From assembly GCA_036172245.1 (NCBI GenBank), contig JAYWIR010000092.1, positions 62,001 through 126,000 on the forward strand: a stretch of 64,000 bases of DNA, read 5' to 3'. Positions 3,350-58,900 of the stretch are shown in pieces. How positions within the stretch are numbered: the stretch's first letter is position 1; each line of letters starts with the position of its first letter. The DNA is from Raillietiella orientalis (lineage: Eukaryota). A program made the translations under genes and the position numbers. Below the pieces are notes generated by a model, which did no database searches, was not told the origin of the DNA, and saw only the letters and a list, made by a program, of their open reading frames with translations.

Positions 3350-3625
3350 TAGGCTCCGAGCAGGCCAGCAAAGCGGCTGCTAGCGGGGCGTCCCGCAACG
3401 AAAGGCGGCGACAACATGTTCTTTCGGTCGCCTACCGGAATGTTAACAATAGACGACAGTCGATCCCACATGGGGCGTAGGGCAACGCATTAGATGAAAA
3501 TGTGGGAAAAACTTTCCCTTCTCCCGCACGCTGCTTAATTGGCATCCACACTCCCTCCTGTGGGTCTTGTACCACAATTGTTCAGTAATTTTTCAATAAA
3601 CGCCTCGCTGTGATCAGATGGTACT
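3350..3625 (+). mobile_element. Degraded 3' end of a Tx1-like element
   Basis: GGGTCTTGTACC (cf. GGGGCCTTGTACC in the B 3' UTR) and AATAAACGCCTCG at 3595, which matches the shared terminal motif. Confidence 0.55.
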
Positions 3626-3634
3626 CCAACCTGT

Positions 3635-5110
3635 CTTTCTTGCGAGCGGACGTGTTTTCGAATCGATCCACAAAGTGGTGGTTGGGAAGGCTTCTTTAAT
3701 TGTGGGTGCTGTGAGGGATCGCCGGTGATTCATGGCGGAGATACGTGAGGTCACTGCGATAGAGACCAGGGAGAGAGGCCAGTTCCTCTCCCCTACCTAC
3801 AGTGGTACAAGCATCCGAACCATCAGAATCGGAGGCAACTGACCCCTCGAGACCCTCTTCGCGGAAGTAGAGAGGCTGGAACAGCGTGATTTTCGCAACA
3901 TCTCCTGAAGCCTTAGTAGGAGCAGCCGCATATAAGGCACAGGACTATAAACCTAGCCTAATATACAAGGTAGATTGCATATTTCAAGAGGATACCTCGC
4001 GTGCGATCACGAGGGAATTCCAGGTACTGAACGTGAAGGAGGCAGACCTTGGAGGACTATCAGTGCTGAGTAGGGGTCAGTGCAACGAGCTGACTTGCAA
4101 AGAAGCAAGTCTGGCACAGCGCTTGTTAAGGACTCCCATGGGGCTAAACCGTTGCAAGGACTTTCCTTTCTTCCAGGATCAATCGACGGTATTCCACCTA
4201 ACGGGCATCACCCAATGAATAGAAAAAAAGGCAGTGCACGAGAGACTGCAAGAATTAAGCACCTTAAACGCGTTATGGGTCAAGTCGAAAGTTCATAAAG
4301 TGTTCCGTGGGTTCTTCATCAGGCTAACTGCCGCGCGCATCACTATTGCGGAAAATAAAGGGCTTCCCTACAAGATCCAGCTCAGAAACGACTCCGTGGA
4401 AGTTTGGTATGTGGGGAAGTCCAAGTACTACGGGTACTGCGATGTTCCGAAACACCTCAAAAAACAGTGTCCGAACTTCTATTGCATTATGTGTAAGAAA
4501 AAAAGCCATATGCGAAGTGCGTGCTCGAAAAGGAAAACCGCAGTATTCGCAGCAGAGAACAAAGAACAAGCAAAACGGGCAGGGGAATTTTGGAAAAGTC
4601 CTGCATGGAAAAGGGGCCGAACCAAAAACGAGATCCTCATCCCAGTCAGTAAACGTCGTCGTCGGACAGAAATGCCGACGACGCTGGTGACAACGACAGT
4701 TGGCAATTGGTGAAGCTCCGAGAAAATATGAAAAAGTCTCCCAAAGCGGAGACAACTGTGGCGCATGAAAAACCACGACGCGAAAAACTTCATAAATGTT
4801 CGGTGACCTTAAAGTGTATGGTGGCAAACGATGCCGCCACTGGGGCAGCAATCCCCTCCATCGTGTACGCCGAAGCCGGGACAAGCGTGGACGAACCATC
4901 TGTGCAAACAGAGGCGGAGCCGTGAGACTCGCTTTACGTGATCGAAGTGGCCGCCTTCCAGAATGCGGCGGAAGAACTCGCAGCCGAACTGCAAGGCCCT
5001 GAGAGCGAAAAGCGGCTATCACAAGGTCCGCAAAGCACCTAGTGATAGCCGACCGCTAGAAAGCCCCCGGAGGCAGACGAGGCTCAATCCCGCCTACGAA
5101 AAGTCCGATT
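3635..5110 (+). pseudogene. Tx1-like 5' end and ORF1 (B-like), degraded
   Basis: GGACGTGTTTT at 3648; YKAQDYKPSLIYKV, similar to B ORF1; WYVGK followed by knuckle remnants (YCDVPKHLKKQC, CIMCKKKSHMRSAC); stops and frameshifts. Confidence 0.85.
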
Positions 5111-10099: not shown

Positions 10100-10472
10100 T
10101 CACCTTTGGCAGCGACTCGCAGACCTGTCTGCAAATAAAGGCTGACGATGGCTAACCTGCATAGCTCTTGATCAGGTACGCCGTCCGTAGCGCATACGCC
10201 GATGACCTGCTTCCCCTTTTACCCATAATCACTCTGGCTTCCAGTCTCGAGCATTTCCTCGAGCTGATTTGACGTGGAGCGGAACAAGTTTGTTCCGGTT
10301 CCTGTTGGTGCAGTGAAGGAGCGGCAGTCCGACTGGATCCGCTTGGGGATCCCCACCTCTGAGTCTTTGAAGTGCTTAGGCATCCCGATGAAAAAAATCA
10401 GCCCAGTGGAAGCGTGGCCAGACTGCTTTCGGAAGGCTTAGAGTGCTCAAAGCCCGTTACACCTTGGCAGGT
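10100..10472 (+). pseudogene. Tx1-like RT fragment
   Basis: GCATACGCCGATGACCTG (AYADDL) at about 10192, followed by DWIRLGIPT..FKCLG. Confidence 0.85.
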
Positions 10473-11060
10473 TTCTCACGCCGGTTAGCCAGGGCTTTGA
10501 TCACGAAAATTTTACATACAAAATTTCATAATAATCTCTTGTCGTTTTAGTTAATTTTCAGTAAAAACACGAAATTCTGCCTTGACGCACCTGTACTTAC
10601 TGACCCTGAGGCCGGTAATGTTCTCTGCACTGACAATGGGGTCGAGAAACGCAGAAAAAACAGCACATAATAAAAACTCCTGGGGGTACAATGCTTCTGG
10701 GGAGCGGAGGGTATGGAAGGAATCAGGGTACGCCGTGGTGAGGCCTCTTCATCCAGTTTTGGATGCGAAGAAGTTTCGGCAGAAGTTTCCTTAGTCGGTG
10801 CCAACATTAAACTTTCAGGCCAACAGGAAACGGTGGGAACATGCTTTTGCAGCGCCAAATTCCTTCAACGGAACTCTCGTCGATCCTGAACATTCCGGTG
10901 GGCGACTCCAAGAACATTTTTCGACTCCTCCTGATGCGGGAAGCCATGCCAGCTTCCGGATGTGTAGCAGTGCTCTGTTGCATACGCGGAATCCTGTATA
11001 AGTAGACTGCGTCAAAAAGAGTTCGCAGGAGTCGGAACGCCATCGACTTTGCGGTGATCT
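10473..11060 (-). mobile_element. Tx1-like 3' end fragment
   Basis: Homologous to 18648-19285; both 3' hairpins are present in degraded form (about 10603-10620 and 10474-10500). Confidence 0.75.
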
Positions 11061-11419
11061 CAAAGGAGGACACTTCTCGTTAGCGGTGGCTGAGAAAAAT
11101 ACTGCCCGCACTTGATTGCATCCAAAACCGGATGCACAGACCTCTTCTCGGCATTTCGTGGTCTCTTCTCTTCCCTCTCCTGCCCATAAAACATTGTCTT
11201 CCTAGGCGATTGTGTGTGTTTTTGTTTTTCTTCAGGTCTACCCGCCCCCTTCGCCAGTGGAGAGGACCTTACCGGCCTGCGTGTCGGTATGAACAAGTGC
11301 CTCAAGTCAGTCAATGCACATCATTCTGACTGAAAATTAAGTTCATGTGACAATACTCCAGTAAGAAATTTTCATTTGTAAACTTCTAATAATAAAAGCC
11401 TTGGCAAAACTGAGTGAAA
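11060..11419 (+). mobile_element. Tx1-like 3' end fragment, back-to-back with the previous one
   Basis: Hairpin ACCGG-CCTGCGTG-TCGGT at 11271-11288; AATAAAAGCCTTGGCAAAACTGAGTGAAA at 11391-11419. Confidence 0.8.
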
Positions 11420-12053
11420 TACGTTGCTGAACCGCGGAACAGGTGAGGTTTCCGCCTCATTTCGCTCATCAAAGGTGTGCCTTCTACATAAGGAAGATCT
11501 GAGGAACGTGAACAAGTATCGCAATAGTCAATGAGGACACCTTATTGCTGGCTCAGTTGTGACCTTCGCGGCTAGGACAAGTTGCAAACGTTTCCATCCG
11601 CTCGCAGCAGACATATGCTATTACCGGGCGAAGCATTATAGGTTAAACTTTTCCACGCTTCCAAATGACTGGATCTCTAGCATGAAACGGGGTAGATGCG
11701 TGACGGAAATTCCGTTGCGTACGTCGCTAAGGAGGTCGATGGTGAACAGAAAAGAACGCCCTTGCGGTGGCTGTCGACTTGCATGAAAAACATCGATGCA
11801 TGGAAGAGAAAAACGTGTTCGATTTTCTGTAACGCTTGGGCTTCCCAGCCTATCTGAGCTCCAGTTGGTCCGACGCGCTCATCAACGTTTTTTTCGGCAA
11901 GCACACCGTGCACACTGTTCCGATGTTGCGTGGCATACGGCAGGAATATAGACTGAGCCCCTTGCTCTTCAGTACCTTCATCGAGTTGATATTCAGAGCC
12001 TGCAGGCAAACTCAAGCGAACCTGCCTCGCGACTATCCCGGTACGCCTGCGGA
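11420..12053 (+). pseudogene. Tx1-like RT fragment (C/G-like)
   Basis: GFPAYLSSSWSDAL...RGIRQEYRLSPLLFSTF (11836..12171). It fuses directly to the right arm of the inverted repeat. Confidence 0.85.
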
Positions 12054-13679: not shown

Positions 13680-13942
13680 ATGTAGCAGCCAGTGCCATTC
13701 TTACAGAGGCGAGCAATTCTGCTCCGTACATGATGATGATCCCTGATCCCTTCTCACTTTCCCACGTTTTGCATTTTTGTGTTTGTTTCCGCTTCTCCCT
13801 GCTGCCGTGGTGGACTGTAGCGCCTTGCGAAACCTTGCCTCAGAGGCTCTGTGTTTCTGCGGGCGTGGCTGGATCACTGGTTTTAAGTGTAGGGGGTTTG
13901 AGTTTGCTTGTAATAAACGCCCTGGCGAAAACCAGGTGAGAA
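13680..13942 (+). mobile_element. Short 5'-truncated family C copy (essentially the 3' UTR)
   Basis: CCCTGCTGCCGTGGTGGACTGTA...GGCTCTGTGTTTCT...GCGTGGCTGGA matches 28347-28425; ends AATAAACGCCCTGGCGAAAACCAGGTGAG. Confidence 0.8.
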
Positions 13943-18647: not shown

Positions 18648-19285
18648 TTTTTCACCCGGGTGAGCCAGGGCTTTTATTATTACAATTTCTTCACAATCAT
18701 AAGATAAGAAAAAATTCCACAATAAAGTCTTTTTCGTTCAAAATGTTTGTCTTTTTGGTCATCATATTTGTGTTTGTCGTACTTATGACACTTTTTCTTA
18801 CCGACCCGCAGGACGATTAGGTCCTCCACACTGGCGGAGGGGCGGGAAAAACAAAAATAATACGAAAAAAAAAAACGCCTGGGAAAGCAATGTTCTTTGG
18901 GCAAGAAGAGGGAAAGGAGGGGATCACGGTACGCCGTGACGAGGCCTGAGCATCCGGTTTCGGATGCGATCAAGTGCCGGCAAATGTTTTCGAAGTCGGC
19001 GCCAACGGCAGGCCTTCTCCAAAGTGATGGCTGCCCAGTGAATCGCATTCCTAGTGGTCCACCCTCTTCGTGACGCAGTCCCCGTGTTCAGGATTCCGCG
19101 TATGCAACAGAGAATTGCTGGTGGATGGCCTGAACCTCCCGCTACCTTAAAGCGGAAGCACCCTTCGGCAGGAGACGCTGCGCACAGGAGTTCTCTGGTG
19201 TTCTCCTGTCGTATGGCGAAGAGCAGAAATCCCGCAAAATGCGGTCGCTGGTGGCGGTTGGTGCGACGTGGGCTGGACGGCCTGA
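18648..19285 (-). mobile_element. Tx1-like 3' end abutting the F ORF2 linker
   Basis: The minus strand ends AATAAAAGCCCTGGCTCACCCGGGTGAAA and runs straight into F codons TRAALIS (cf. TKAALIS at about 63254). Confidence 0.8.
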
Positions 19286-20955
19286 ATGGATCCGCTTGGG
19301 GATCCCCAAGGCCAGGTACCTAAAGTAACTTGGCGTCCTTTGAGGGACTTCTGCCCGTCAGAAGCCTGGTCAGGTCGTCTCCAAGAAGTGATGTCGGCGA
19401 TAGGCCCGTTCCTGGAAGGCAAGTTTCACTTGCCAGAACGGGCCGCGGTTTGGAATGCCTTCGCGGTCCCCATCCTCCGCCCCTTGCTTTTTGTTTGTCA
19501 CGCCCCCGTGGAATCTAAAAAGCGGACGAAGGACCTCCTCCGCATAGCCCTTTGGGGCGAGGGGAGGCCCCGAGTCCCTTTGAAGGACTTGTGCGCTCCG
19601 CGTCGGGACAGCGGTCTCAGCATGGTGACGCTGGAACGCGTGGAAATGCAGCTGCGATGGCGAACCCTCGCCATCGCAGCAAAGATGTGGAGCACCGCTT
19701 GGTGCATTCAGGCCCGCCTCCTGGCCAGGCATGTGTCCCGCTGCGAAGGACTCGCATCGTTTCTTCTGTGCTCTGGTCGGAAGATTCGAAGATGCGGTCC
19801 ACTGCTCGGCCGCATGGCAACCCTGGCAAAGGAGAACGACTGGATGGTTTGTGGCCCCACCAATTCCCCCGCTTGGCTGGAGGAGACTGCTCGCACCTGG
19901 GCCAAGCAGAACCAGAGGTGCGAAGACCGGATGAACTACCTGCGAGTCGGCCTTTACGCCCGCTGCACCCTGGGTGAAATTCTTCAATTTCCAGCGAGTT
20001 GCACGTAAGCGGAAGGGACACCCCTTGCTACGGCGATGCCGTTCCTCCAAAGGGCGCTTCATGAAAGCCGGAAGCCGATGTGTCAAGTCTGTTGCTGTAT
20101 CGCAGGCAGAGAGAAGATGATGAGCGGCTGGACCATGGAAGAGCTGACATGTGCTACGACCCCAAGTGTCCAGCCGCGTGGATTAAGAAGATGGAACGAG
20201 CTGCTTGGCATTGGATTGCATGACCTGAAGTGGCCCCCAGTTTCACTTGGATCCAGGATTTTTCTCCTGAAGTAACAAGAATAGGCGCTTCTGTGGCTAC
20301 ATCCGGGTCTCTTCTGCAATATGCTTCCACTGGACCCTAAGAAGAGTAGATCCTGTTTGTGCAAGGTGTGGGGAGTGGAAGTCGCTACTTTCCTCCTAGT
20401 TGCCTGCTGTTCCGTTCGGATTCTTTGGAATCGTCTTGGAACGACCCTCGGGATTCCGGTTGGTGGCAACCCCAGAGACGTTTACAGTCTTCTCTTCGTG
20501 CGGGACGCCCTCAGTCCAGCCGCAGCCTTGGCAGCACTTTGCTGCATCCGTGGTATTGGGGCGGCCATAAGTGATGCCGAAAATGAAGATTGCAGCGTGA
20601 CGGACTTCATCCAGTATGCTGTTCGCTTCATGCAGAGAGCTACCGGATAGCCCCAGCTAGGAGGATTGAGGGAGCACCTAGAGGGTATCCTACTTAGGAT
20701 CGACCCTCCTCCCAGTGGAGTGTAATCGCTATTCTTCCCTCCAAAAACTGTTTTTTTTTTTTTACTGATTTATTTCTCCTTTTGTTTTTTCCCTCATTCC
20801 TTTCCTATGCCGAGGAGAGACACACCGGGCTGCGTACCGGTGTATAGGCAGTTCCGGCATTAGGTGGCCGTTAGTGGGGCCTTGTACTAAAGGTGTCCGT
20901 ACTCTTATCACGAATGAAACGTTTTTTTAATAAGCGTTCCTGAGCAACCGGTTGT
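19286..20955 (+). mobile_element. Family B-like 3' third (thumb, CCHC region, 3' UTR), degraded
   Basis: GPFLEGKFHLPER..RVPLKDLCAPRRD, colinear with 45690-47340; hairpin at 20822-20843; terminal motif at 20929. Confidence 0.9.
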
Positions 20956-24200: not shown

Positions 24201-26255
24201 CCGGTTTCTATGCTGACCTACCTGCGATCCTGCTGGCGCGACGCGCTCATCCAGATCTTTTTCAGTGGACACACCGTGCACGGCGTACCGGTGCGACGCG
24301 GCATACGGCAGGGAGACTGTCTGAGTCCCTTGCTCTTCAGTACCTACTTCGAGTTGGTACTGAGAGCGTACAGGGAAACACTAGCTCACCTGCCGCGTGA
24401 CTATCCCGGTACGCACGCAATGTCAGCATATGCGGACGACCTTCTGCTGCTTTTCCCTATGTTTACCTTTGCATCGGCGGTCGAGGAGTTCTTCGACCTG
24501 CTAAATAAGGGAACCGGGCTTGACGTGAACAGGGCGAAGTCGTCCGTCATGCCAGTCGGTGCGGCGTGGGCAGGGCAGGCGGACTGTGTCCGTTTGGGGA
24601 TCCCCACGGTACGGTACTTCAAGTACCTCGATGTACTGATGGGTGATTATCTCTCTCGGATGCGTGGTCCAGCTGCCTCCAAAAGGTAGAGACGCCGATC
24701 AGCCCTTTCCAAGGCCGCAGGTTCTTCCAGCCGGAACGGGCCGCGGTGTGCAACGCATTCGCGGCGCCCCTCCTCCGTTCCCTGCTTTTTGTTTGTCCCC
24801 CCACCACAGAAACTAAAAAGCGGACGAAGGACGTCCTACGGATTGCCCTGTTGGGTAATGGGAGGGCCCGAGTCCGGCTTGAGGACTAGAGCGCTCCGCG
24901 TCGGGACAGCGGTCTCGGCCTCCTGACGCTAGAGCGGCTGGAGATCCAGCTCCAGTTTCGGTTACTCGCCCTAGTGGCGAAATATTGGAGTAGCAGTTGG
25001 TGCGAGCCCGCACGTCTCCTCGTCGAGCAGGCTGCAGGCAAGGTGGGACTGTCATCCTTCCTCGCGCTCCGTCGGCTCTGCCAAGTCGGTCACTGCGGGT
25101 TGCAGCTACGGAGAGTGGCTGACCGGATGAGGAAGAACGCAGCATGGCTCTGCTCTCGCCCCTTAACGGACCTCCTTGGCTGCAGGAAACGGTTTAGACG
25201 TAAGCAAGGAGCAACCAGCAACGCACCCAAGAAGGGCAGAGACAATTCCTTGCACGTAGTGACCGCCTGACGCTCAGAGAGGTCCTGGAGAACCTCCGAA
25301 AACGAGCGTGGGCAAGAAAAACTCCCCTCGCTGCAATGCTGTTTCCGCTCGCGGAACATTTAAACGGCAACACGGCTGCGAAATGGGATGTTGACGTAAA
25401 AATCTCCGGTACGGAGAAAAAGTACGGGGAATGGAAAACGGGAATTCTCTGCGATACCGCGGCCCGGACTACCACTCCTATTGGACTTTTGCGTTGGGGC
25501 GAGCTGCTTAATGTTCCGCGGGAACAATTAAAATGGCCCCCGGTGCTGATGAACACCTCCACTTTCCCTTCAAAATGGCAGGAGTCGGCGCTATTGTTGC
25601 TGCATTGGGGACTCCCCTGCAACGCCCGCCGACACCATTGGACCTGGGGAGCGTTGAGCCCTCATTGTGCGAGGTGTGGAGAACGGGACTCCCTCACTCA
25701 CCTCCTTTTGGATTGTGTGGCTCTTCGGGCCCTTTGGAACCGTTTTGCGGCGGCTATCGGTATCCCCTGTGGCAACCCCAGAGACACAATTAGATCCCTC
25801 TTCGTTTGCGACGCCCTTCGGCCCTCGGCCTCGTGAGCAGCTCTGTGCTCCTTTCGCGGGATCGTCGCTGCATGGAGCAAAGCAACGGGAGGACCTCGCG
25901 ATAAGGGTGCCGTCCAGTGCGCAGCCGAACTTATGTGGACGGCGACAGGATGGACCCATCTGGATTCAACCATCCAAAAACAGCTTGCCGGCATCCTGCA
26001 AAGGATGTAACGGCCCCACAGCAGACTGTGATCCCTTCCCGTTTCCCCCAGATCTTGATTTTAAATATTTCTTTTTTTTTTCTTTTATTGTTTGTTTTGT
26101 CCTTGTTTTCTTTGTTATCGTGGTGGACCGTACCAAAATGCGGACCGGTGAAGCGGCAGGCCTTATTTCGTGTACCAGTGCTTGGCAGGACCACCAGGTC
26201 AGCCACCAGCGCTAGTTTTATTCGAAAAAATAAACGCTTCGGAGCAACCGGGAAG
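21280..26255 (+). mobile_element. Family G (C-related) Tx1-like element, 5'-truncated and pseudogenised
   Basis: Knuckles CGHCSTSGHLKKRC and CKQCKQPGH; endonuclease LLQEIH..ASDFN..IDHVF; RT VDLHKAFD, GIRQGDCLSP, AYADDL; CARCGERDSLTHLLLDC; terminal motif at 26229-26252. Confidence 0.93.
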
Positions 26256-26860
26256 AAGATAGTTCTTAAATGGCGAAGCCTCGGAGGTGTTGTCGGAGAT
26301 GCTCCGCAGCCACCGGATGCCTAATTCAATCCTCATGAATCCTCTAGTTTTGCAACGGCGGTCCGGCATGGTTAGTCGAACCGCGGCACTACCGCTGACC
26401 ATGGATGGGAAGTCCTTAAGGGTGCTTCCAAGATTCCACAGAGCATGGACCGTGGCGAATTTCGCTAACACAGTCCTCAATGCGCGGTCGGAAGTTTCCG
26501 GTTCAATGCCGTAAAGCTCCGCCACGAACGACTCATCCATGGTAGACAAGAAGACCTTCTTATCACGGATAACAAAGGGGTGCGCAGCAAGCGTTACACA
26601 ACAGCCGCGTCTTTGCGGCGCACTTTGAAATATCCCAAGCTTTTGATGGTCATAATGGCAAGAAGGTCTTCCTCCCGCACGCCAACAGGGATCAGTTCAT
26701 CGTTGAACTGATTATCGTCGGGAACAGAAAGAAATCCACTGACCTGGTAGCGGAGTGCGGGATTGTAGCCCTGGGCTACGTGAGCCGGAACCTCCGTTTC
26801 TTTGGGTAGTACCCTTTTGACGGCTACCGCGGCAGCAACGCCAGCAAAACTTCTCGCTCA
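26256..26860 (-). pseudogene. A-related ORF1 fragment joined by deletion to the ORF2 linker
   Basis: MDESFVAELYGIEPE...LAKFATVHALW...VRLTMPDRR; 26260-26320 matches the LRGFAIQEL region of A. Confidence 0.85.
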
Positions 26861-28325: not shown

Positions 28326-28497
28326 TTTTTTGTATTTACCCCTTCACCCTGCTGCCTTGGTGGACCGTACCGGTCTGCGAACCGGTGACCCGGCAGGCTC
28401 TGTGTTTCTTGGTGCGTGGCTGGAGCAATGAACCAGCAAATGCAGGTATTTGTAAATGCTTATTTTAGAACAAACGCGCCGGCGAAATCCGGGTAAA
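28326..28497 (+). mobile_element. Family C 3'-UTR-only copy (about 170 bp)
   Basis: Similar to 51345-51522, with both hairpins (28369-28386 and 28479-28492). Confidence 0.85.
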
Positions 28498-28607
28498 AAT
28501 CGAACGCCTTGTGTGCTCCAGGGTGGACGTGTTTTCTCGGTGCTCCTCGTGCCAGGAAGTCTCCCCCAGTGCGAGCGTCGTGTGGTTCGGTGATCGATCA
28601 GGCAGCA

Positions 28608-37768: not shown

Positions 37769-38167
37769 TCATTGCCCTACCCTCCATAAACTAAATTTGT
37801 ATTTTCTTTTACACCCGCGTCCCCATAGGCTCCGGAACATTTGAGGTGCTCATCGTTTAAATCCCCGTGAGTACGGAGCCTAACCAAAAACCCTTTTCCC
37901 TTCCCTCCAGTTTTTGATTTTTGTTTGTTTCCCCTCATTCCCCCCACGCTGCGAGCGGTTTGTTTACCAGGCCTGCGTGGCGGTAATTTTTCTATGTTCT
38001 CTGTCGTTCTGTTGGTTGGGGACATTGTCCCTGACCAGTTTATTATTATTAATAAACGCCCCGGCGTGACCGGGTGATAAATTTCAATCGAGTGCGGACG
38101 TGTTTTTCTTCGCTCTCGTCTCCGTGCTTTCATCCGCTTCATCTTGGCGTCGTGCATTTTGACGACG

Positions 38168-43687: not shown

Positions 43688-44008
43688 TCATTGCCCTACC
43701 CTCCATAAACTAATTTTGTATTTTCTTTTTACACCCGCGTCCCCATAGGTTCCAGAACATTTTAGGTGCTCATCGTTTAAATCCCCGTGAGTACGGAGAG
43801 TAACCAAAAACCCTCATCCATTCCCTCCAGTTTTTGATTTTTGTTTGTTTCCCCTCATTCCCCCACGCTGCGAGCAATTTGTTTACCAGGCCTGCGTGCC
43901 GGTAATTTTTCTATGTTCTCTGTCGTTCTGTTGGTTGGGGACATTGTCCCTGACCAGTTTATTATTATTAATAAACACCGCGGCGTGACCGGGTGATAAA
44001 TTTCAATC

Positions 44009-47000: not shown

Positions 47001-47140
47001 CCACACGCGATGGATGTCATCCCATACGCCCAACGCTTGATGCGGAGAGCTGCCGGATGGCCCCAACTGGGGAATATACGGACAGACATGAGGGCTTCCT
47101 TCAACGGATGGGCCCTGCTTACAGCGTTTAGTGATCTCTT
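44009..47140 (+). pseudogene. B ORF2 remainder (endonuclease C-half, RT, CCHC finger)
   Basis: IDHVF, SDH, PGEDG, VDHHKAFD, GIRQGDSL, AYADDL, CVRCGERESLSHLIVDC; several stops. Confidence 0.93.
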
Positions 47141-47725
47141 CCCTGCCCTTCAACTTCTCTTTGTCTGTTTATTTTTTATTTTTCTTTTTGTTTTATCCTC
47201 ATCCCCCTTCGCTGCTGAGGAACGCTACGCTGGGCTGCGTGCCGGCGTCCTGGCAAGTCCAGTGTATATGGCCGTGAGCGGGGCCTTGTACCGCGGATGT
47301 AGAGTTTTAACAATAAACGCCCCGGGCGTACCCGGGAGTATACCTCCAAGGCTGGCAAAAAGCGGTGAGGCGTCCGGCCTCCACCGAGGAGTCGGTTAAT
47401 TCCGACCCCGAAGCGCAGGCCGGAAACCAAGTTACCATCTCCGCGGCACCCCGCCCGAAGGCTGGAAGGAAGTCCAGCAAACCCCGGAAAGCCCCTCTCC
47501 AGGTCGAAGGCGTGGAGATTTCTTCCGACTGCGAGGGTGCCATGAGCGTGGGAGAATACCGGGAATCGAATCACCCGAGAGACCACCACGCACAGACACG
47601 GAGGAGATGGAGGATGTTGAAGCTGGAAAGGTACTCAAGGTGCCTGAAGAGGCTGAAACCCTAATGGTCATCTCACCCGCCTCGGAAGAGGCGGTTTCCC
47701 CCACACCGTCATCTTTCAGGCAGTA

Positions 47726-50700
47726 ATGCCGGAAATCTCCTCCCGCCGTCGTCTGCGCATCGCCGTTTGGAACGTGAACGTGATGACAGACGCCGGCATG
47801 AGACGAGACATGGCCGCCATTCTAGGATCGTTCGACCTTGTGCTGCTGCAGGAGATCCATGTGATCTCTGCAGAACAAGCGCAGGAGATCGAACGCATCT
47901 ACGGAAGGCGGCTGTGGTATCGGTGTGGAACATCGAGAAGTTGTGGTGTCGCTTACCTGCTTCGGCCCGCCATCGAGGCCGCCGCTCGTGGAGTTCGGTT
48001 GGACGATCACGGTCGTGTCGGCCAGCTGACTCTCAGCTGGTCCGACTCGATCGACCTGATCGTTACGAACGTTTACGCCCCGAGCGGAGCGGACCTGACG
48101 AACAGGAGGGCCAGGAAAGAATTTTTCCTTGCCCTCCATCGCGACTGGTTGAACGAGGCAGGCGTGCGGAATGCCCATCTGGTTGCAGGGGATTCTAACG
48201 ATCGTTTGAAACCGGATGGGCCGAATCACGAGCGTGACCTGGTCAACGAGGTGTGCGCGGCGGTGCACACTTGTAATTTGTTGGTCAGTATACCAGGGAT
48301 GGAGGACAACATCGATCACGTGTTCCTTGACGAGCACCTGTGCACTCGTGTGGGCAGGCGCTGCAAGTTGCCGTGCGAGTTGTCCGACCATCGACCAATC
48401 GTGATTGAAATCCATCCGCGCGACAGGGGCCCCCCCTTGTCAGCGTGGCGTTTGCCAGGGGACTAGCTGAAGCTCCCGGACGCGACGGAATATCTCCGCA
48501 CGTTTATACGGAGCTTTAGGATGCAGACATTTCAGGATTGGGACCGCTTCAAGCGGTCGGTCCAGGAGTTCTGCGACCAGTTCCCACGGCACCGCCTACC
48601 TTCGGAATTTGGGGACGGGATACGTAACAAACGAGCCTATCTGCAGGCTCGCCGTTTCGCTAACACCCCCGACATACGCAGGCTGGCGGAATACATAGAG
48701 GGACCCGAGAGGCAAGCCTGGCAGTCAGGATCTGCCAGCTTGCTGGACGATCTGGGCCAGGAGCACTCGGCACCTGCCAAAATCCGCGGCCTGCTGCAGA
48801 GTTACTAATCCTCCCTGTATGCCAGGGCACCTCCGGAGAGGAACGTCTCACGACTCCTGCTTCCGGAAGGCGCTCCAGCGATCGGGGAGGAGCAGAGAAA
48901 GACCCTCGACGAGCCTTTCACGATGGGCTAGATCATCTCGGCCATCTTAAAGCTCAAGAGGCGAAAGGCTCCAGGGGAGGACGGCCTGCACGCGGAGTTT
49001 TATCAAACTTTCGCGGCTGAGCTAACCCCCCTGGTACATCAACTCACCTTGCTGATACGCGAGACAGGTGACGTTTCCGCCTCGTTTCGTTCGGCAAAGG
49101 TGCGGCTTCTCCCTAAGGGAGGAGATCTGAGGAGCATGAACAACTGGCGTCCCATCACAATAGTGAATGCGGATGCCAAGTTGATAGCTAAGGTTTGGGC
49201 TGAGCGCTTGGGACGGGTTGCAAACGCCTTCATCAGCCCGGAACAGACGTATGCTGTTCCTGGGCGAAGCATGGAGGCGAAGCTGTTCCACGCTTCCACC
49301 TGGCTAGAGCTCCAACACGAATGGGGCTTGATGCGCACCGGGAATTCCGGTGAGTCCGTCAGTCATGCGACGGATGTTCGGATGGGGGAGGGAGCACTTG
49401 CGGTCGATGTCGACTTGCGTAAAGCATTCGACAGCGTCGACCAGAATCTCCTGCTGGAGCTTTTGGTACGCTTGGGCTTCCCGGCCTCATTTTTGGCCTA
49501 TCTGCGCTCTAGCTGGCGCGATTCGCAAATGAATGTAACTTTCAGCGGGCATACTGTTCACGGCGTGCCGGTGCGACGTGGGATCCGGCAAGGAGAAAGC
49601 CTGAGCCCATTGCCCTTCAGTACCTACTTTGAGTTGGTACTGAGAGCGTACAGGGAAACTCCGGCGCACCTGCCGCATCAATGCGCCGGAACGCCTGCGG
49701 TTTCAGCATATGCGGACGACCTCCTGCTACTGCTACTTATGTCCACCCCGGCTTCGGCGGTCGAGAAGTTCTTCGACCTGCTGAATCGAGGAACCGGGCT
49801 TACGATGAACAGGGCGAAGTCGTCCGTGATGCCAGTTGGTGCGGCGTGAGCAGGGCAGCAGGACTGGGTCCGTTTAAGAATCCCCACGTTGAGGTACTTC
49901 AAGTACCTTGGTGTGTTGTTGGGGGACTACTCCCCTGCGAAAGCGTCGTCCGGCTGTCTTCAAAAAGGAGAGACGGCTATCGGCCCGTTCCGAGGCGGCA
50001 GGTTTTTCCTGCTTGAACGGGCCGCGGTTTGGAACATGTTCGCTGCTCCTCTCCTCCGTTCCCTGCTTTTTGTTTGCCCCCCCACAGAGAGGATCAAAAA
50101 GCGGACGAAGGACCTCATCCGTATCGCCCTTTGGGGCAACGGGAGGGCCCGAGTCCGCTGAAAGGACTTCTGCACTCCGCGTCTAAACGGTGGACTCGGC
50201 CTCCTGACATTGGAGCGGCTGGAGCTGCAGCTCGAGTTCCGGATTTTGGCACTTGTGCCGGAGTGGTGGTGCACCTGTTGTTGCGTCCCTGCACGTCTCC
50301 TCCTTCAGCAAGCCACCGGCAAGACGGGACTTACGTCGTTTCTTGCACTCCATCGAAGCCGCATCAGCCGATGTGGGCTTCAGCTACGGAGGGTGGCTGC
50401 GCTTGCAAGGAAAAATCATCGATGGATCACCTGTCTCCCCGCGAACGGTAGTGCCTGGTTGCAGGAAACCGTTCGCACGTGGGGACAATTCGGCATGCAA
50501 CCCTCCCATCAGGAACGAAGGTTCCTGTTTGGGTGTTACAGAAGTTGCACGTTCCGTGAGATCCTGTAGGATCATAAGAAGAGAGCGTGGTCAGGAATAA
50601 CCCCCCTCGCTGCTGCGCTGGACTCCCTAGTGGAACATCAGGACAGCGATGTTGCGGCGAAGTGGGAGGTTACAATAAAAATCTAAGGGAAGGAGGAGCA

Positions 50701-51308
50701 GAGAGAGTGATAGACGGGCCAGCTAACTGATGCTGCGACCCCGAGTACGCCTCCTAATGGACTTCTGCGCTGGGGAGCGCTGCTGGATGTTCCGATTGAA
50801 CATCTTAAGTGGCCCCCGATTCTTATGAACACTTCCATCCTCCCCCTAAAATGGCAAGAGTCGGTATTCCTGTTGTAGCACTGGGGACTCCCCTGCAACG
50901 CCCGTCGACACCACTGGACCTGGGGAGCGGTGGATCTTAATTGTGTAAGGTGCGGGGAACGGGAGTCCCTCCCCCACCTCCTAGTGGATTGTGTTGCCCT
51001 TCGGCCCCTTTGGTTCCGCTTCGCCGCGGCCATCGGTATCCCACGCGGCAACCCCAGGGACGCACTAAAAGCCTTCTTCGTTGACGACCCATTGCGGCCA
51101 GCGTCCTCGATAGCAGCCTTGTGCTGCCTTCGTTGGATCGTCGCCACCTGGAGCACGGCCACGGGAGGACCTAGCGATATGGACGCCATCCAGTGCGCCT
51201 CCCATTTCCTGAGGAGGGCGTCGCGATGATCCCACCTGGATGTTCATAACAAACAAGAGCTTGTCAGCATCCTGAGAGGGATGATGCGGCCCCAGCAGCA
51301 TCAGTGAT
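47726..51308 (+). pseudogene. C ORF2 (endonuclease, RT, CCHC finger)
   Basis: WNVN, LQEIH, GDSN, IDHVF, SDH; DLRKAFD, GIRQGESLSP, AYADDL; CVRCGERESLPHLLVDC; many stops. Confidence 0.93.
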
Positions 51309-51522
51309 CCCTTCCCGTTTCCTCCCACTTTTTGTTTCTTTTTGTTTAGTTTTTCTGTTTTTCCTTTTTCCCATGCTGCCTTAGTGGACCGTACCGGTCT
51401 AGAAACCGGTGAATTGGCAGGCTCCGTGGTTCTTAGCTTCTGGCTGGAGCATTGCCACAGCCATTAATTATTACTTTATAAAGTTCATTTTATAATAAAC
51501 GACCCGGAGAAATCCGGGTGAA

Positions 51523-54500
51523 AATCGAACGCTTTGTAGAGATCGACGGCGACAGCTAAGGCTCCCGGCGTTCCATCGTGCCTTGAACACCGCCGCTTAC
51601 CTTTGGCAGCGGCGATTTCGGCTGCCTGGCTCTGCTGCGCCACGCGCTCCAGCAACTCCAACTATGTTCGCGCGAAGAAGAGATTCGCGTCCAAGGACCG
51701 CCCCGAAACAGCATACGTCTGCTCCGGACTTACCAAGGACTCCGCGATTCTCCCCAAGCGAGCAAACCATAGCATGTAGAACAATTTGACGTCCGAATGC
51801 ACCAAGGTTATCGGACGGCAGTTGCTGAGGTGGCGCAAATCACCGCCATTCGGCAGGAGCCGCACCATTGCTGAGCGGAAAGAAGCGGGAACCTCTCCCG
51901 TCTCACACATCAGCGAGGAAAGACTTAGCACCAGGGGGACGAGCTCCGCCGCGAAGCACTAAAAGTACTCCGCGGACAGGCCATCCTCCCCAGGCGCCGT
52001 ACGCCTCTTTAGGCCCGCTATGGCGGGAGATACTTCTACCGCCGTGAAGGGCCAATCCAATCTGGCGCGTTCCCTTTCGTCGATAGCAGGGTTACCCGTC
52101 TGAAGAAGCAGCTCGGAGAGACTGCGTTCCGTGGGCTCCTTCGCGTACGAAGAAGAGTAGTAGCGCTTGACTACGCGGTGTACTCCTGCTGCAGCCGAGC
52201 ATTCCTGGCCAGCGTCATCGAGCAGACAAGCCGCTCCAGACTGCCAAACCTGGCGCTCGGCCCTCGCCTTGTACTCCGCCAAACGCTGGACGACCGGGCA
52301 TCGGGAGAAGGTACGCGCCTGCAGATAGGATCTGCTGTTCGCGACACTTTCCACGAAGCCGCGGGGAAGCAGGTGCAAGGGGAACCGTCAGGATTACTCC
52401 CGGACCGATCTTCTCAAATCGTCCCAGTTCTCGAGTTCACGGATGGCAAAGCCCCGGCGGTGTTGTCAAAGATGCTCCACCGCCTCCGAATTGCTAAGCC
52501 AGTCGGCCGCCAACCTCCAGACATCCATCGGAGGCCCTTTGCCAGGCGGGAGGAGCTCGAACTCCAGTCACCGATGATCCGAAATCGCGGACAGCAGGCG
52601 CCCTCTCCGACCTACTCGTGAGAGCAGGTGTTCATCGAGGAACGCATGGTCCGGCGAGCTCTCCATCCCGAGCTCACCAGCAAGCAAGTTTTGCACGCGA
52701 ACGGACGCGCATACCTGGCTCACCAGTTGCTTCTCCCTCAAGCGGCATCTCTCCTCTGTTAGCAGGTGGACGTTGAAGTCTCCTGCAAGGAGGTGCGCCA
52801 CGTTAGGGCCGGAGACAGCGAGCCAGCGGCTGCGCAGGCCACCCAGGAATGCAAGTCGCTGGGCGAAATGCCGGCCGCCGCTCGGCGCGTAGATATTCGT
52901 AACGACCAGGGCGATCGATTCGGACCACTTGAGGACAAGTTGGCCCACACGACCTTCCTCGTCGAAACAAACGTTCCGCACCGCCTCCGCCACCCTGCCT
53001 CGGACGAGGAACGCGACTCCGCACGTGTGCGCGGAGCCTTGCCGCCAGTGTAGCGTCCCGCCCGCGCGCTCTTCCAGATCCGATGCCTGCCGTACGGAGA
53101 TGCTGTGTATCTCCTGCAGCAGCACCAGATCGAACGCGCGCAAAGCGTTGGCAACCTTCCGCCTTTTGTCAGCATCACATAGCCCGTTGACATTCCAACA
53201 GGCCACGCTGACGCGACGAGCGGACGCGAGTCCACGCATCACTGCTGCTGAAATGACGGCGTGCTCCTCGCCGTGTCCGGCGAGAAGTCATCTGGTAAGA
53301 GAGCGGATTGGGAAGCGGAATCGCTCCCGTTCGCCGCCACATCGCACCCAGCTGAGTCCTGGGAGCCGAGGATGATCGCCTCGGTCTCCGTGCAGGAGCC
53401 GGAACCGCCTCCGGCAACAGGCTCTTGCTTCCGCAGTTAAGCCCGGCGCGCTTGCTGGTTATCCCGAGATGCGCGCACTCTTTGGTTGCAATCGGACTCC
53501 ACCTCGGATTCCGAGTGCCTGGCGCGAGACTGGCGTTTTGCCTGTCTGTTTTTCTTTCGGCAGGTGGAGGCTTGCCCTGCCCTCGCGGGGTTCGTCGCAG
53601 TCGCCAGCGGAGCGTCCGGAGCTTTGAGTTCCGCAGCCGCCCTCTCGCGCGAAGCGACGCAGACAGAGCACGCAGCCGTAGTGCTTACCTGGGTACGCAC
53701 CTTCTTCGGCGTGCTTCTCTTTTGCCTCCCACCTACCTTAAGGATGGGGAATATTGAAGGGTCAACCTTCTTCTTCTCCTTTGTGGGCGTTCTGGAGACT
53801 CGAGTCCAGCCCGCGTCGGGGACGCCCTCCTGGGAGGCCGACGCTTCCCTCAATTGTTTGGCCGGAGATGCCGGCTCACGTTTCGCGCTCGCGGCGGGAG
53901 ACGGCTCGGTCCCCGTTACGCACTGCACCTGCTCCTTAGCCGATGCGGGCGAAACGGCGGTCATTGCAGTCGTCCCGCGAGGCGCTATTGCAGCCTTCGC
54001 TGCTCGTGCCTTCGGCGAGGAAGACGTGATCTCCACCGCCGTAGGAGACTGCCGTTCAGAGGCAGCTCTGAGGGTACCCGCGCACGGTTTCCCGTGTGCT
54101 CCGCTGGACGCGCAAGCGGACGCGGACGGTTCAGCAGCCTTGATTGAGTGCGTGCCCGCACTCTTAAGCTGCTTCGAAGGGGGCGATTTGCCCCCAGGGC
54201 GACGTGGCATCTTACCCGTCTGCGCGGTTCTCTAGGATGGTGGCTTTCCTGAAGCAACCGCGGCCTTTTTCGCGGTACCGCCACTCAAAGATGCCCCGCC
54301 CTTCGCGCCCGATTTCTACCGTGGCACAACGGAAGATCTTTTCGGCGCGGACGGGGTGGATTGTTGGCGGCTTTTCGCCTGCCTCTTTCTCTTGAGCTCG
54401 GCGCACTCTTTGATGGAGTGGCCGAGCTGTTTACAATAGCGGCAGTTGCGTGAAGGGCACGTCCACGGACGGTGGCCTTCCGCACCGCAAATGCCGCAAG

Positions 54501-55260
54501 CCGGTGGCTGACCGGCAAATTTAAGGTGGACGATCGCATCGCCCACCTGCAAGTGAGGAGACATTTGCCTCCTATCCGCCATGGTGACACGCGCCATGGC
54601 AAGTCCGCTGTGGAGAGATGCAATGCTTTTGATCGGATTATCTGCTCTCCACAGCGCGTGCACCGTGGCGAATGCACTTAGTGCACCGACGAGCACGCGA
54701 TCGGGCGTGTCCACCTGGACGGCGGATAATCTTACCACGAACGACTGGTATATGGCCTACGGGACGACCTCCTTCCCGCGGATATTTAGCGGGGTGCGGA
54801 GAAGGCGCTCGACTAGGGATGCCTCTTTGCAGTGCACCTCCCAGTGTCCGAGCGCGTTAACCGGCATGATGGGCAGGAGGTCGTCCTGTCGGACCCCGAC
54901 GAGCAAAAGCTCGTCCCACAAATTTTCTCCGACCCCGTCGGAGATAGAAGCACTCAGCGGATAGCAGAGCGCAGGCTTGTAGCCATGGGCTGCATATGCC
55001 TGCAGCTCTGCTTCGTCGGGCGGTGCTCCGTTGGCTGCCGCCGCCTTGACGACGGCGGCAAAGCTTCTCGCCGGTGGCGAGACACAAGAATAAGAGGCGG
55101 ACCGGACAGCTGGAGTAGAGTCTCCACTGCCAGTAACAGCCTCCACATCCATCTTTTGCTGCAGAAGCTCCGTGGACATCCCAGTAGACGCACTGGGGCA
55201 CACCACACACAAGAACACGGAAAGGAATCACGCTCGAGGAGCAACACAGAACACGTCAGT
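51523..55260 (-). mobile_element. Family D (sister of A): 5' end, ORF1, endonuclease and start of RT; broken at KAFD
   Basis: TGACGTGTT near the 5' end; CGICGAEGHRPWTC and CRYCKQLGHSIKEC; endonuclease 53239->52568; ends PGALAVAVDLYKAFD at the C 3' junction. Confidence 0.92.
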
Positions 55261-55999
55261 GCACCGTTATCGTCGAGCGTATTCCCGACCGCTGCGGAAA
55301 AGAACTCGCCGCTGCGGACGACAACCCCTCTGTTGACTCTGTTAACAGCGAGGGGAGCGAGCCAACGGCGGCGTCCGTCATCGACACCACCATCGATGAC
55401 GTAGCCTTAGCGCGAGCCGCGGAGGAGCTGGCAGCCTCGTTGCAGCCAGAACCCTCCATGGCTGGCAAGAAGGCCGTAAGGCGTCCGGCCTACCCTCAGG
55501 GGTCCCCCACTTCCGACTCCGAGGTGAAGACCGGAAGCTCAGCCTCCGTTTCCACGGCACCGCGCAAGAAGTCTGGACGTAAGTCCACAAAGCCGAGGAA
55601 GCTCGTCTCCCCCGTCAAAGGGGAAGAGATGGCTTGCGCAAGTGAGGGTGCCATAAGCGTAGAAAACTCGCGGGACCCTTCGCCTGAGAGACTCCCACGC
55701 GCGGAAACGGAGGGGATGGAGGGTATGGAGGCCGTACAAGGGCCTCAAGTGCCTGGAAAGGCCGAAACCCCCATGGATAACCCGCCTGCCTCGCAAGAGG
55801 TGGGCTCCCCAAAACCTTAATCTTCCCAGCAGTAATGCCGGGAATCTCCTCCCTCCGTCGTCTGCGCATTGCCGGTTGGTAGGTGAACGGCATGACAGAC
55901 GACGGAAAAAGAAGAGACATGGCCGCCCTTCTCGAGTCCTACGACCTTGCGCTGCTGCAGGAGATCCACGTGATCTCTGCAGAACAAGCGCAAGAGATT
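55258..55999 (+). pseudogene. Family C fragment: ORF1 C-terminus and start of the endonuclease
   Basis: CTVIVERIP...LQPEPSMAGKKAVRRP; TAATG at 55833; LLQEIHVISAEQAQEI, cut by E. Confidence 0.88.
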
Positions 56000-58900
56000 T
56001 CTCACCCGGTCACGCCGAGGCGTTTATTCCATATAACATAAACAAAAAACAATTATACAAAATAAACCAGTTGAGAACCAAACTCCTAAACGACGACTGA
56101 GCAAGAATGAAGAGAATACTGCTGGCACGCAGGCCAGAGTAACTGTTTTGCGAACGGTGTGGGTGAGCGGGGAACACAAAGAAACCAAAATGAAATAAAA
56201 ACAATCAATAAGGAGGACGGGAAAAGGGTCTTTGTGATCGTTCTGGAAGACACGGGGATGAAAGCATGTGCACTGGAAATTTTACTGAGCGAACGGGGAC
56301 GGGGTATAATGAGCGAGAGGACGCAGGGTTCACCGGATTACGCCGTTCTCAGAGGTCTGTAAATTGACGATGTATGCCGGTGATGTCCTCTTTCACCTTG
56401 TCACGAAGATGAGCACCTTGAAGCCTCCTCCATCAATTGAGCTGCAAGCAGTTGAGCCTCTTTTTGCTGCGCCAACAACTCCAGGGCGATGCGGGCCTTC
56501 ACGATGGCGCGAACGCAACACATGGTGGCGACAATCGCGCCAAACGAAAGTCCATTTCTGCTGAAGAATCGAAGCCACACATCAATGGCACTGCCTCCTT
56601 GTGGCATGATGGCCGATGTGAGCCTTGGCCATAGTTCCCGAAAGTCACCGCAGTTTAGCAAATGGTACGGAAAAGACTCGATCTCTCCGCACCTTGAACA
56701 GTTTGGCAAAGCAGCTCCCCCGGAAACGTTGCTTCGTTGCCTTTTACAGTAAAATGCACAGTGTAAAATGAGAAACACATCTTGTTTCCTCTTTAAGGGG
56801 AACACGGAGCATTCGAAACAAACGAGGAGAACCAATACCTCTTCGGGAGGCACACATAAATGTTCGTTCCACCGAAGAAGGCCCTTCGCCCCATTCCGAG
56901 GAGTGGCGGCTTGCACCAGTTCCTTCGTCGTCCAGCTGCCGAGGAGCTTACTGACTCCCGCTATTTTCCAGGAGAACTCCCATTCCGCCGGTAGGGAAAC
57001 GTCGTTGCTTGCACTGAGGGCGAACAGCGCTGCGGCGAGTGGTGTGGCGGCCAGACGATCCGACATCTTCTAGTCATGCATTACTTCGTCCATTTGATGA
57101 CTGAGGAGAAGTCGCAGAAGACGAAGATATTTTCGGCGCGTTCCTTCGGAAGCTGCCCAAGATGAAAAGGATTTCTGCCGCCATGCATTATTGTTAATAG
57201 GGAGGCAGGAGATCCAACATTGGGCATCCAGCAGTGAGTAAAGCTACCTTAGTGGGAAGCCAAACTCTATTCTGGTGTGCCGAAAGTGGGGTAGCAACAA
57301 AAGCAGTCCGTCGCTTCCCGTGCAGCGCCTCAGTATAAGGCGTGCGGGTAAGCACCACGGCGTACACCACAGCTTGGCACAGAGCCGCAGCATGCGAAAC
57401 TGCACATGCAGTACGATGCTGTTTAAGTCGAGGATGCCCAAGCCTGCATCCTGACGCGGCGCCACCAAGTCTTTAAGTCTAACACGGGATCTTGCAGCAC
57501 CCCACAACACTTTGCGTAGAAAGCGCTGAGCCCAGACTTTGACTTCCTGTGGAAGTGGACGAACAAAAAACCGTAGCCGGAGGAGGAGGGCAACGAAAGT
57601 GTTCCAGATGCAGGCCCGTTCGGGCAAGACAAATTCGCCCCCTGAAAACGGGCCAATTGCACGCTCTGCCTTCCGAAGGCAGTCCGACCACGCTTGTGAG
57701 ATGCAGAAGTCGCCCAAGGGCACGCCAAGCTACCTGAGGTACCTGCCCGTGGGGATCCCCAGGCCCATCTAGTCGGACTTCCCCTCCCACGTCGCATTCA
57801 CCGGAACAACCATACACTTACTCCTGTTAACGCACACGCCCGCACCGCGACGAATCAACTCAAAGAAGTCTTCAAGCGATGTCGCCAGGGTGGACATGGG
57901 CAACAGGAAAAGCAGGTTGTCGGCATAGGCTGCCATGTCCGGCGTACGTTGACAGGAGCACGGCAGGTTGGATAGCGTCAGCCTGTAAGCCTCAAGCACC
58001 AATTCAAAATAGATGATGAAGAGAAGCGGGCTTAATCTTTCACCTTGTCTAATTCCTCGTCGTACCGGCACGCCTTCACGCGACAGCCACTGAAAACAAA
58101 AGATGTAATCGCGTGACGTCAGCAGAAGCGCAAGTACGCCAACAGGGTTGCCGGAAGACCCAGACGTTCCAAAAGCTCAAGAAGAAACTTTTGGTTCACG
58201 CAATCGAAAGCTTTGTGCAAATCGACTGCAGCCGCCAAGGCTCCCGGTGTCTCCCTTTGCGTCCCGCTCCTCAGTTGGTGAGAGATCGAAGGCGTCGCTT
58301 CCGCACGACGATCCACCGTCACACGATGCTGCAATTGCAGCCATGTGCGCATGAACAAGAGATTGGCGTCCATGGACCGTTCAGGAACAGCGTACGTCTG
58401 ATCCGGACTTAACAAGGATTCCGCGATCCTACCCATCCGCGCCACCCGAAGTTTCGACAACAACTTCACGTCCGAATTCACTAATGTGATCGGACGCGAG
58501 TTGTTCAGTTGGCGCAAATCTCCGCCCTTCGGCAGTAGACGCACCTTCGCTGAGCGAAACGAGGCGTGTACATCGCCCGAGTCTCGCATCAGCGACGAGA
58601 GTTGGAGCACCAGGGGGATGAGCTCCGCCGCAAAACACTGAAAGAATTCCGCGGGGAGCCCATCTTCGCCTTGCGATTTTCGTCTCTTGTGCCCCAAGAT
58701 CGCCGAGGAAATTCCCTCTGCCGTGAAGGGCTCAGCAAGATGCGCGCGTTCCTCCTCGTCTCCAACAAGTGCATCAATCGGCAGGAGCAGCCAGGAAAGG
58801 CTGCGTTCCGTTGGTGCCTCTGCATACAGAGAAGAGTAATAGCTCCTGACTATTCATCGCACGTCGGCTGGAGCCGATCATTCCCGGTACTGATCGTCGA

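Follow-up and report, generated by a model that had tools for sequence, protein, structure and literature searches.

A conserved AATAAA-hairpin cassette at the poly(A)-less 3′ ends of several L1-like LINE lineages in Raillietiella orientalis

LINE copies at the locus

The stretch of DNA analysed here, referred to as the window, comprises 64,000 nucleotides of contig JAYWIR010000092.1 in the Raillietiella orientalis assembly GCA_036172245.1 and harbours copies of long interspersed nuclear elements (LINEs) resembling L1, all of the copies examined being dead. A first-pass annotation of the window had listed 13 copies of a terminal motif composed of AATAAA, a hairpin and GTGA. The motif was found to be present at all 13 sites, and at each of them it constitutes the 3′ end of an L1-like LINE copy, the copies representing at least five diverged lineages. 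This motif is hereafter called the cassette, and its sites are named after the position at which the cassette begins, with a minus sign for those on the reverse strand (Table 1).

LINE fragments and their strands were mapped with tblastn, using as queries the open reading frame 1 (ORF1), apurinic/apyrimidinic endonuclease (APE) and reverse transcriptase (RT)/C-terminal pieces of the most intact element. A Pfam scan of 12 long ORFs identified Exo_endo_phos in two (1.5e-11 and 1.6e-10) and RVT_1 in two (7.5e-16 and 3.5e-20); a zf-RVT match in one ORF reached 25.2 bits, under the cut-off of 27.5, and the C..CxxC..C columns were invariant across five lineages. As judged from these translations, the predicted ORF2 protein would combine the APE, RT and C-terminal Cys-rich domains by which L1-clade LINEs are recognised.

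Self-comparison of the window revealed a tandem pair of 5.9-kb elements that are 95.1% alike (32168-38089 and 38081-44008). All other matches between copies were 70-80% alike, with the exception of 26860-28325, which contains two reverse-strand matches to the RT of the tandem pair at 89-90%, and of an unrelated inverted repeat at 97%. Since the inter-copy matches lie mostly at 70-80%, several old lineages are present, and the RT/C-terminal proteins of these lineages are 37-67% alike by tblastn. Protein searches returned one relative at 58% identity and otherwise sequences at 31% or less, including one plant L1-like protein at 30%, and a scan of metagenome contigs with the ORF2 C-terminal-domain alignment gave 186 pattern matches, of which none was confirmed.

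Occurrence and composition of the cassette

Seven tblastn matches extend to the C-terminus of ORF2 (residue 701 of the query or further), and every one of these is followed by the motif on the same strand, 196-319 nt downstream. At the remaining six sites the copies are truncated to the 3′ untranslated region (UTR) or slightly longer, and five of the six align with the UTRs of full copies, 3595 having been left out of the alignment. Because 38051 and 43970 are tandem duplicates, the 13 sites correspond to at most 12 independent copies.

The sequence AATAAACG occurs in seven exact copies against 1.06 expected, a number reached by none of 100 shuffles. A covariance model (CM) was trained on seven sites with 5-nt loops and was run with filters off on both strands of the window, yielding 15 matches at E ≤ 10. 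Seven of these are the training rows themselves, and six are independent recoveries of the other sites: 13912 (E 6.6e-4), 51494 (1.1e-3), 47312 (8.7e-3), 28469 (0.36), 10500(-) (3.1) and 3595 (5.2). As the model adds only 13294(-) and 50674(+), both of which are marginal (E about 5) and lie away from LINE ends, no clear copy had been overlooked in the first-pass annotation. No cassette matched Rfam at a gathering score, and permissive Rfam scans of two whole 3′ UTRs gave only sub-threshold chance matches, all far under the gathering scores. A reading as a histone mRNA 3′ stem-loop was dropped, no such Rfam match being among those listed at E ≤ 10 for two whole 3′ UTRs. Searching metagenome contigs with a degenerate DNA pattern of the cassette retrieved two almost identical contigs, neither of them matching a LINE protein, which were taken as chance.

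The AATAAA hexamer is intact in 10 of the 13 copies, is replaced by a one-letter variant in two (AATAAG and AACAAA) and appears as the more decayed TCAAAG in 10500(-). Stems are common across lineages, and the loops are lineage-specific, with CGUGA, GAAA-type, AGCAA, CGUA and CUCA-type loops observed. GTGA follows the stem in nine copies, the other four having GTAA, AGTA, AAGA or, in one case, no tail. Similarly, the loops had been described as often containing GNRA: GNRA-like letters do occur in them, but a true closed GNRA tetraloop (GAAA) is found only at 51494. The shortened variant at 3595-3613 stops at the first GTGA, which is the loop copy, and could be due either to a deletion between two GTGA repeats or to an internal start of reverse transcription.

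Table 1. Cassettes and other features of the window. Positions refer to the window; CM, covariance model; TSD, target-site duplication.
Feature	Position	Strand	Description
Cassette, youngest element copy 1 (32177-38080)	38051..38080	+	AATAAACG; stem CCCGG/CCGGG; loop CGTGA; tail TGATAA; CM 46.2 bits (training row)
Cassette, tandem copy 2 (38090-43999)	43970..43999	+	one G.G mismatch in stem; linker CA, not CG; TSD copy 44000-44008
Cassette, element hosting the tandem pair (29869-32176 plus 44009-47342)	47312..47342	+	6-bp stem CCCGGG/CCCGGG; loop CGTA; tail AGTATA, without GTGA
Cassette, outer full-length element (28513-29868 plus 47353-51523)	51494..51523	+	7-bp stem ACCCGGA/UCCGGGU; GAAA tetraloop; tail GAAA
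Cassette, copy cut to about 175 nt of 3′ UTR	28469..28498	+	hexamer AACAAA; 4 bp left in stem; GTAA replaces GTGA
Cassette	13912..13941	+	stem CCTGG/CCAGG (U-A for C-G); loop CGAAAA; tail TGAGA; flank is a decayed antisense KAFD site
Cassette	26229..26262	+	stem UUCGG/CCGGG (two U.G); loop AGCAA; 10-nt purine-rich tail AAGAAGATAG replacing GTGA
Decayed cassette	20929..20951	+	AATAAG; broken stem; loop AGCAA; ends directly after 3′ arm; antisense APE target shared with 26229
Cassette, minus-strand element (ORF2 56347-59948)	55998..56028	-	stem CUCGG/CCGGG (one U.G); loop CGTGA; tail TGAGAAA
Cassette, truncated copy	18648..18678	-	AATAAAAG; stem CCUGG/CCGGG (one U.G); tail TGAAAAA
Decayed cassette, sub-lineage of 18678(-)	10472..10500	-	TCAAAG replaces AATAAAAG; stem pairs only with a bulge; CM E 3.1
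Cassette	11391..11421	+	stem CUUGG/CUGAG (C-G, U-A, U.G, G.U, G-C); loop CAAAA; tail TGAAATA
Shortened variant	3595..3613	+	AATAAACG, 5′ arm, then TGTGA and flank; 3′ arm absent; no hairpin in fold
Second conserved hairpin	51392..51411	+	ACCGG / 8-nt loop near YCUGCGWR / CCGGU; about 100 nt upstream of cassette; predicted by RNAalifold on alignment A5
Homologues of second hairpin	47228-47247, 28368-28387, 20823-20842, 11270-11289, 56120-56139(-)		plus five other aligned UTRs
Middle UTR hairpin	about 3540-3575, 20880-20905, 47265-47290		common loop G(G)GYCTTGTA; stems TGTGG/CCACA, GCGG/CCGC, TAGT/ACTA
5′ start motif	3648, 28525, 29877, 32183, 38096	+	GGACGTGYTTTY
Family F LINE	17135-18305	-	RT
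Family F LINE	62573-64000	+	RT at 63587-64000
Large-subunit rRNA fragment	2295-2547	-	253 nt; 54.3 bits (gathering score 50)
Inverted repeat	1-1120 / 12048-13166		1120 nt; 97.3% alike

Element ends and target sites

The right half of the window, with a GC content of 0.55-0.61, is organised as a four-level nest of LINEs with clean target-site duplications (TSDs) spanning 28469-51537. The outer element is bounded by ATCGAACGCYTTGT (28499-28512 and 51524-51537), the second-level element inside it by CCTCCAAGGC (29859-29868 and 47343-47352), and the two tandem copies inside the latter are flanked and separated by three copies of ATTTCAATC (32168-32176, 38081-38089 and 44000-44008), which represent DFN codons of the host element's endonuclease. 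Three insertion sites, accounting for four copies, are fixed by these TSDs, and at all of them the last base of the element lies 5-6 nt past the stem and 24-25 nt past the hexamer (tails TGAAA, AGTATA and TGATAA), bearing in mind that a boundary set in this way may move by one base where tail and duplication share a letter. The siblings 18678(-), 10500(-) and 11391 have unrelated flanks, and their likeness stops 7 nt past the stem. Between 26229 and 20929 the flanks can be aligned, indicating that both copies hit one site, and the end of 26229 was placed by means of this alignment; at this shared antisense APE site, 26229 carries its purine-rich 10-nt tail and 20929 carries none.

No A or T run of eight or more was present at any of the 13 termini, in agreement with the claim that only 1-4 A residues precede the target DNA. 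Six such runs were found in the window, none of them terminal, and several belong to a T-rich tract inside the 3′ UTR. The description of the termini as poly(A)-less is thus borne out both by the TSD-defined ends and by the lack of terminal A runs, and the few terminal A residues are part of a fixed run of six terminal bases, not the remnant of a tail.

Insertion at one and the same target was observed repeatedly, with three copies at the antisense KAFD site (TCGAACGC/TCGATTGC), two at one antisense APE site and two in tandem at ATTTCAATC. The 28469 copy has the lineage and target site of 51494, 28324-28512 matching 51349-51537 at 77%. Same-lineage tandems at one regenerated target were seen in two instances, 28469 followed by 51494 at antisense KAFD codons and 38051 followed by 43970 at GDFN codons, which is the pattern that repeated site-specific insertion would give.

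At their other end, the full-length copies have a start motif in common, for which five exact and two one-mismatch occurrences were counted, a total of seven against 1.45 expected. Each of the exact sites (Table 1) lies no more than a few hundred bases upstream of an ORF1 match, and several of the starts come directly after the 3′ cassette and TSD of another copy.

Conservation of the 3′ UTR

The 3′ UTRs of 11 copies were aligned (alignment A5), and the UTR, 200-310 nt in length, proved to be homologous throughout across lineages. Mean pairwise identity among the 11 UTRs was 0.78 for the block containing the hexamer and 5′ arm, 0.60 for an upstream hairpin, 0.51 for the T-rich tract and 0.27-0.44 for all other blocks; for the cassette over 31 model columns it was 0.71 (11 copies, with the duplicate left out). 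The view of a conserved terminus is upheld by these values, the cassette being the best-kept block of the 3′ UTR (0.71-0.78 versus 0.27-0.51 for most others), and within it the hexamer is the most invariant part, with the stem and the following bases conserved about equally well.

Given that the copies are all dead and related, and that a cassette identity of 0.71 is similar to that of alignable coding DNA (70-80%), the cassette might be imagined to have no function and to be a leftover of common ancestry containing a chance hairpin. However, the surrounding UTR has dropped to 0.27-0.51, leaving the cassette and a single upstream hairpin conspicuous, the cassette is kept where the ORF2 proteins are only 37-67% alike, and the ends are exact within a base or two, so that we regard this explanation as highly improbable.

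The invariance of the hexamer, intact in 10 of 13 copies, and the distance of 24-25 nt between it and the element end at all three TSD sites would also suit a signal acting mainly in mRNA 3′-end formation, in which the hairpin would place or strengthen cleavage and the RT would choose its template through cis preference or an upstream UTR domain. A polyadenylated template without a fixed start should, however, leave variable A tails, which are seen at none of the 13 ends, and conservation of the stem and the bases after it is about equal to that of the hexamer. A role restricted in this way therefore seems unlikely.

The second conserved hairpin upstream of the cassette was 77.9% paired, a value reached by two of 500 shuffles, and scored 0.306 versus 0.207 (11 of 500), a somewhat better result than that for the terminal hairpin; it is without wobble excess, having nine G.U against six C.A. 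A middle UTR hairpin was also noticed at three places, with a loop in common and stems that differ (Table 1), this position being occupied by another hairpin in other lineages.

Pairing in the terminal hairpin

RNAalifold made no call of the terminal hairpin on the MAFFT alignments (A1, A2 and A5) because MAFFT puts the 3′ arm out of register where loop lengths differ. A CM-fitted alignment, which leans towards structure and includes two non-member rows, was used instead. In this alignment 93.7% of cells pair, and the covariation of the stems asserted in the first-pass annotation was not significant when examined by structural alignment (score 0.221 versus 0.183; 42 of 500 shuffles scored as high). 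For the most part the stem shows plain conservation rather than covariation.

Within the 12 full hairpins, 56 of 60 cells pair, with seven G.U or U.G wobbles, two U-A double changes (13912 and 11391) and no C.A or A.C. The four non-pairs (G.G, G.G, U.U and U.C) are all located in visibly decayed copies; mismatched stems are those of 43970, 28469 and 20929. Contigs from three DNA runs, which are short and fragmentary, were aligned to 38085-56100, and their differences from the window included 145 C>T and 135 G>A, with one listed difference touching a cassette (56018); none of the loose ends or joints listed for these contigs helped in defining a terminus. Since these two kinds of change are about as common as each other, seven wobbles against no C.A are unlikely by chance (the odds being roughly 1 in 128, or 1 in 64 when the wobble common to 18678(-) and 10500(-) is taken as a single event), and this bias, resting on small numbers, is a weak hint of pairing on the sense RNA.

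The GC palindrome is also foldable in DNA, and a signal at the DNA level was considered, for example a cDNA hairpin for second-strand priming or a site for a nuclease of the host or the element, but no direct evidence for such a signal was found. The seven wobbles would then be C.A mismatches on the complementary strand, and lineages with different target sites share one cassette; very little credence is given to this explanation.

Two further candidates were rejected. Decay at CpG sites might have turned C-G into U-A (CCCGG/CCGGG to CCTGG/CCAGG), but this was set aside because the CpG observed/expected ratio of the window is 1.00. A helix masking AAUAAA by pairing with an upstream UUUAUU was inconsistent: pairing of AAUAAAC with a UUUAUU-type stretch is more probable than in shuffled upstream sequence (above roughly 88% or more of the shuffles) in four of 11 copies (38039-38057, 18679-18725(-), 56029-56070(-) and 26217-26235), and not so in the other seven.

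Neighbouring features

A much more divergent LINE, designated family F, is represented by two segments with 24-36% identity to database L1-like proteins (Table 1). The C-terminus and 3′ end of family F were not found within the window, and the 18678(-) copy is inserted in family F. The large-subunit rRNA fragment is situated near the decayed cassette 3595, where the left part of the window is low in GC, and the inverted repeat flanks this left part.

Proposed mechanism

We propose that the cassette is probably a LINE 3′ tag of the stringent type, which would make reverse transcription begin at a precise point independently of poly(A). It consists of AAUAAA, a linker of 2-3 nt, a GC stem of 5-7 bp, a loop of 4-6 nt and about six mostly purine bases, and it would serve as the 3′-terminal tag of related, target-specific L1-like LINE lineages. 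The AAUAAA would direct the RNA 3′ end to a point about 24-25 nt downstream, corresponding to the end of the element. Cleavage usually takes place 10-30 nt downstream of a poly(A) signal, and the 24-25 nt between hexamer and element end fall within that range, so that the RNA end is probably formed through AAUAAA; this canonical spacing holds at the three TSD-defined sites if the element end is also the RNA end. The terminal stem-loop would be bound by the element's own ORF2 protein, with a possible contribution from the conserved hairpin upstream in the UTR, and target-primed reverse transcription would start at a set position, 5-7 nt beyond the stem, with no poly(A) priming, as in "stringent" recognition. 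Any tail added to the RNA would go uncopied. The suggestion of an RNA signal for 3′-end formation and/or RT loading is thus in accord with the position, conservation and precise, poly(A)-less ends of the cassette, and draws no comparable support from covariation or from folding, which was favourable in three of 13 cassettes.

Several observations weigh against recognition of a folded tag. Double changes occur in two of the five pairs (three cells, one of them in a non-member row), a result reached by 108 of 500 shuffles. The wobble of 56028(-) is private to one dead copy, three contigs reading C at 56018, which indicates that wobbles also arise neutrally. Fold energy clearly beats shuffles at 51494 (z -4.14, with none of 200 as good), 13912 (z -2.57) and 47312 (z -2.46), and the other ten hairpins have z values between -1.74 and +0.87; the hairpin of 11391, for example, is weak (-1.6 kcal/mol, z +0.34), and the minimum free energy fold of 20929 is without the terminal hairpin. 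GTGA is missing from four of the 13 copies, the lineage pattern of the loops may simply reflect descent, and the near-invariant stem letters may fit recognition of sequence, not shape.

The last of these points would apply to a primary-sequence site read by the ORF2 or ORF1 protein, whose palindromic CCGG core would pair incidentally. Both the presence of C-G or G-C in 8-12 model-aligned rows at each of the five pairs and the lack of significant covariation agree with such a site. However, stems that differ in sequence still pair (CCUGG/CCAGG, CUUGG/CUGAG, ACCCGGA/UCCGGGU and CCCGGG/CCCGGG), and there are no C.A mismatches beside the seven wobbles, and we consider it improbable that primary sequence is all that is read.

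Within the proposal of a stringent-type tag, lineage-specific loops on shared stems echo, by analogy, the bipartite stem/loop recognition described for zebrafish L2 elements (PMC4176376). A more speculative and rather doubtful extension would be a two-part identity code among mutually nested sibling LINEs, in which AAUAAA and the stem would load any sibling RT, the loop would let each ORF2 protein select its own RNA among co-expressed siblings, and synthesis on RNA free of poly(A) would begin precisely at the sixth base after the stem.

Relation to known systems and significance

Conserved 3′ hairpins and poly(A)-less ends have already been described in L1-clade LINEs, and the cassette is a new sequence example of a known strategy. 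It is distinguished by a hexamer that abuts the hairpin, by being a tag common to several target-specific sibling lineages and by ends that are defined by TSDs.

In a monocot L1 lineage ('monocot 1a', LINE1-1_ZM group; Ohshima 2012), the divergence of the last 45 nt is given as 0.144 versus 0.570 overall (PMC3472496), and the conserved end is described as a hairpin with compensatory changes and interpreted as a tag for the RT encoded by the element itself (PMC3472496; PMC3747384). As at the present locus, an L1-like LINE is concerned whose terminal bases are far better conserved than the rest. However, the letters reported for monocot 1a are different, with CGAG on the 3′ side of the stem and UCU within the loop (PMC3472496); compensatory changes are reported there (PMC3472496), whereas here they are too few for significance; and, unlike in monocot 1a, AATAAA abuts the hairpin here and there is no terminal repeat. 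No short interspersed nuclear element (SINE) sharing the cassette tail was seen in this window, in which only 5′-truncated LINE copies were seen.

Among the 15 green-algal L1 families of Table 1 in PMC3472496, two end in (A)n, eight in other short repeats and five in none. These resemble the present copies in being L1-like with ends lacking poly(A), and the account of the algal families in that source describes no hairpin cassette (PMC3472496).

For UnaL2 and ZfL2-1/ZfL2-2 of the L2 clade (Hayashi et al. 2014), the ORF2 protein is reported to bind the 3′ stem-loop, the stem being read generally and the loop specifically (PMC4176376). The combination of a shared stem with lineage-specific loops found here resembles that model (PMC4176376), but those elements belong to another clade and binding was demonstrated for them (PMC4176376), whereas here it is predicted; moreover, UnaL2 is stated to end in TGTAA repeats (PMC3747384), and no repeats are present here.

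A conserved, position-specific stem-loop in the 3′ UTR of human L1 has been proposed as an RT recognition element (PMC5135761). The idea of an L1-clade 3′ stem-loop is shared with the present case, the human consensus stem being given as 8-10 bp with a bulge (PMC5135761). However, human L1 ends in poly(A), described as critical for retroposition (PMC3747384), and the copies here have none.

In the work on crocodilian Tx1-Mar (Kojima 2015), the SINEU elements, whose mobilisation is ascribed to Tx1-Mar, are all poly(A)-tailed, and that work reports having found no LINE sharing the SINEU 3′ end (PMC4494074); these tails point to poly(A)-based recognition in that system. Tx1-clade LINEs are like the present elements in being of the APE type with fixed sites inside other transposons (PMC4494074), a likeness of type and insertion pattern.

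In practical terms, the true 3′ ends of these nested elements can be annotated reliably with the cassette as a marker, and the co-resident lineages offer a compact natural set of stem, loop and tail variants suited to binding and retrotransposition assays. Should the two-part identity code prove true, it would mean a fully poly(A)-independent L1-clade RT and would provide a natural test system for the shift of L1 from stringent to relaxed recognition. Most of the L1-clade elements studied, which come from mammals and flowering plants, use poly(A) for priming and hence also copy cellular mRNAs and SINEs; structured, tail-less L1 relatives such as these bear on whether strict recognition was ancestral in the clade, as Ohshima proposed.

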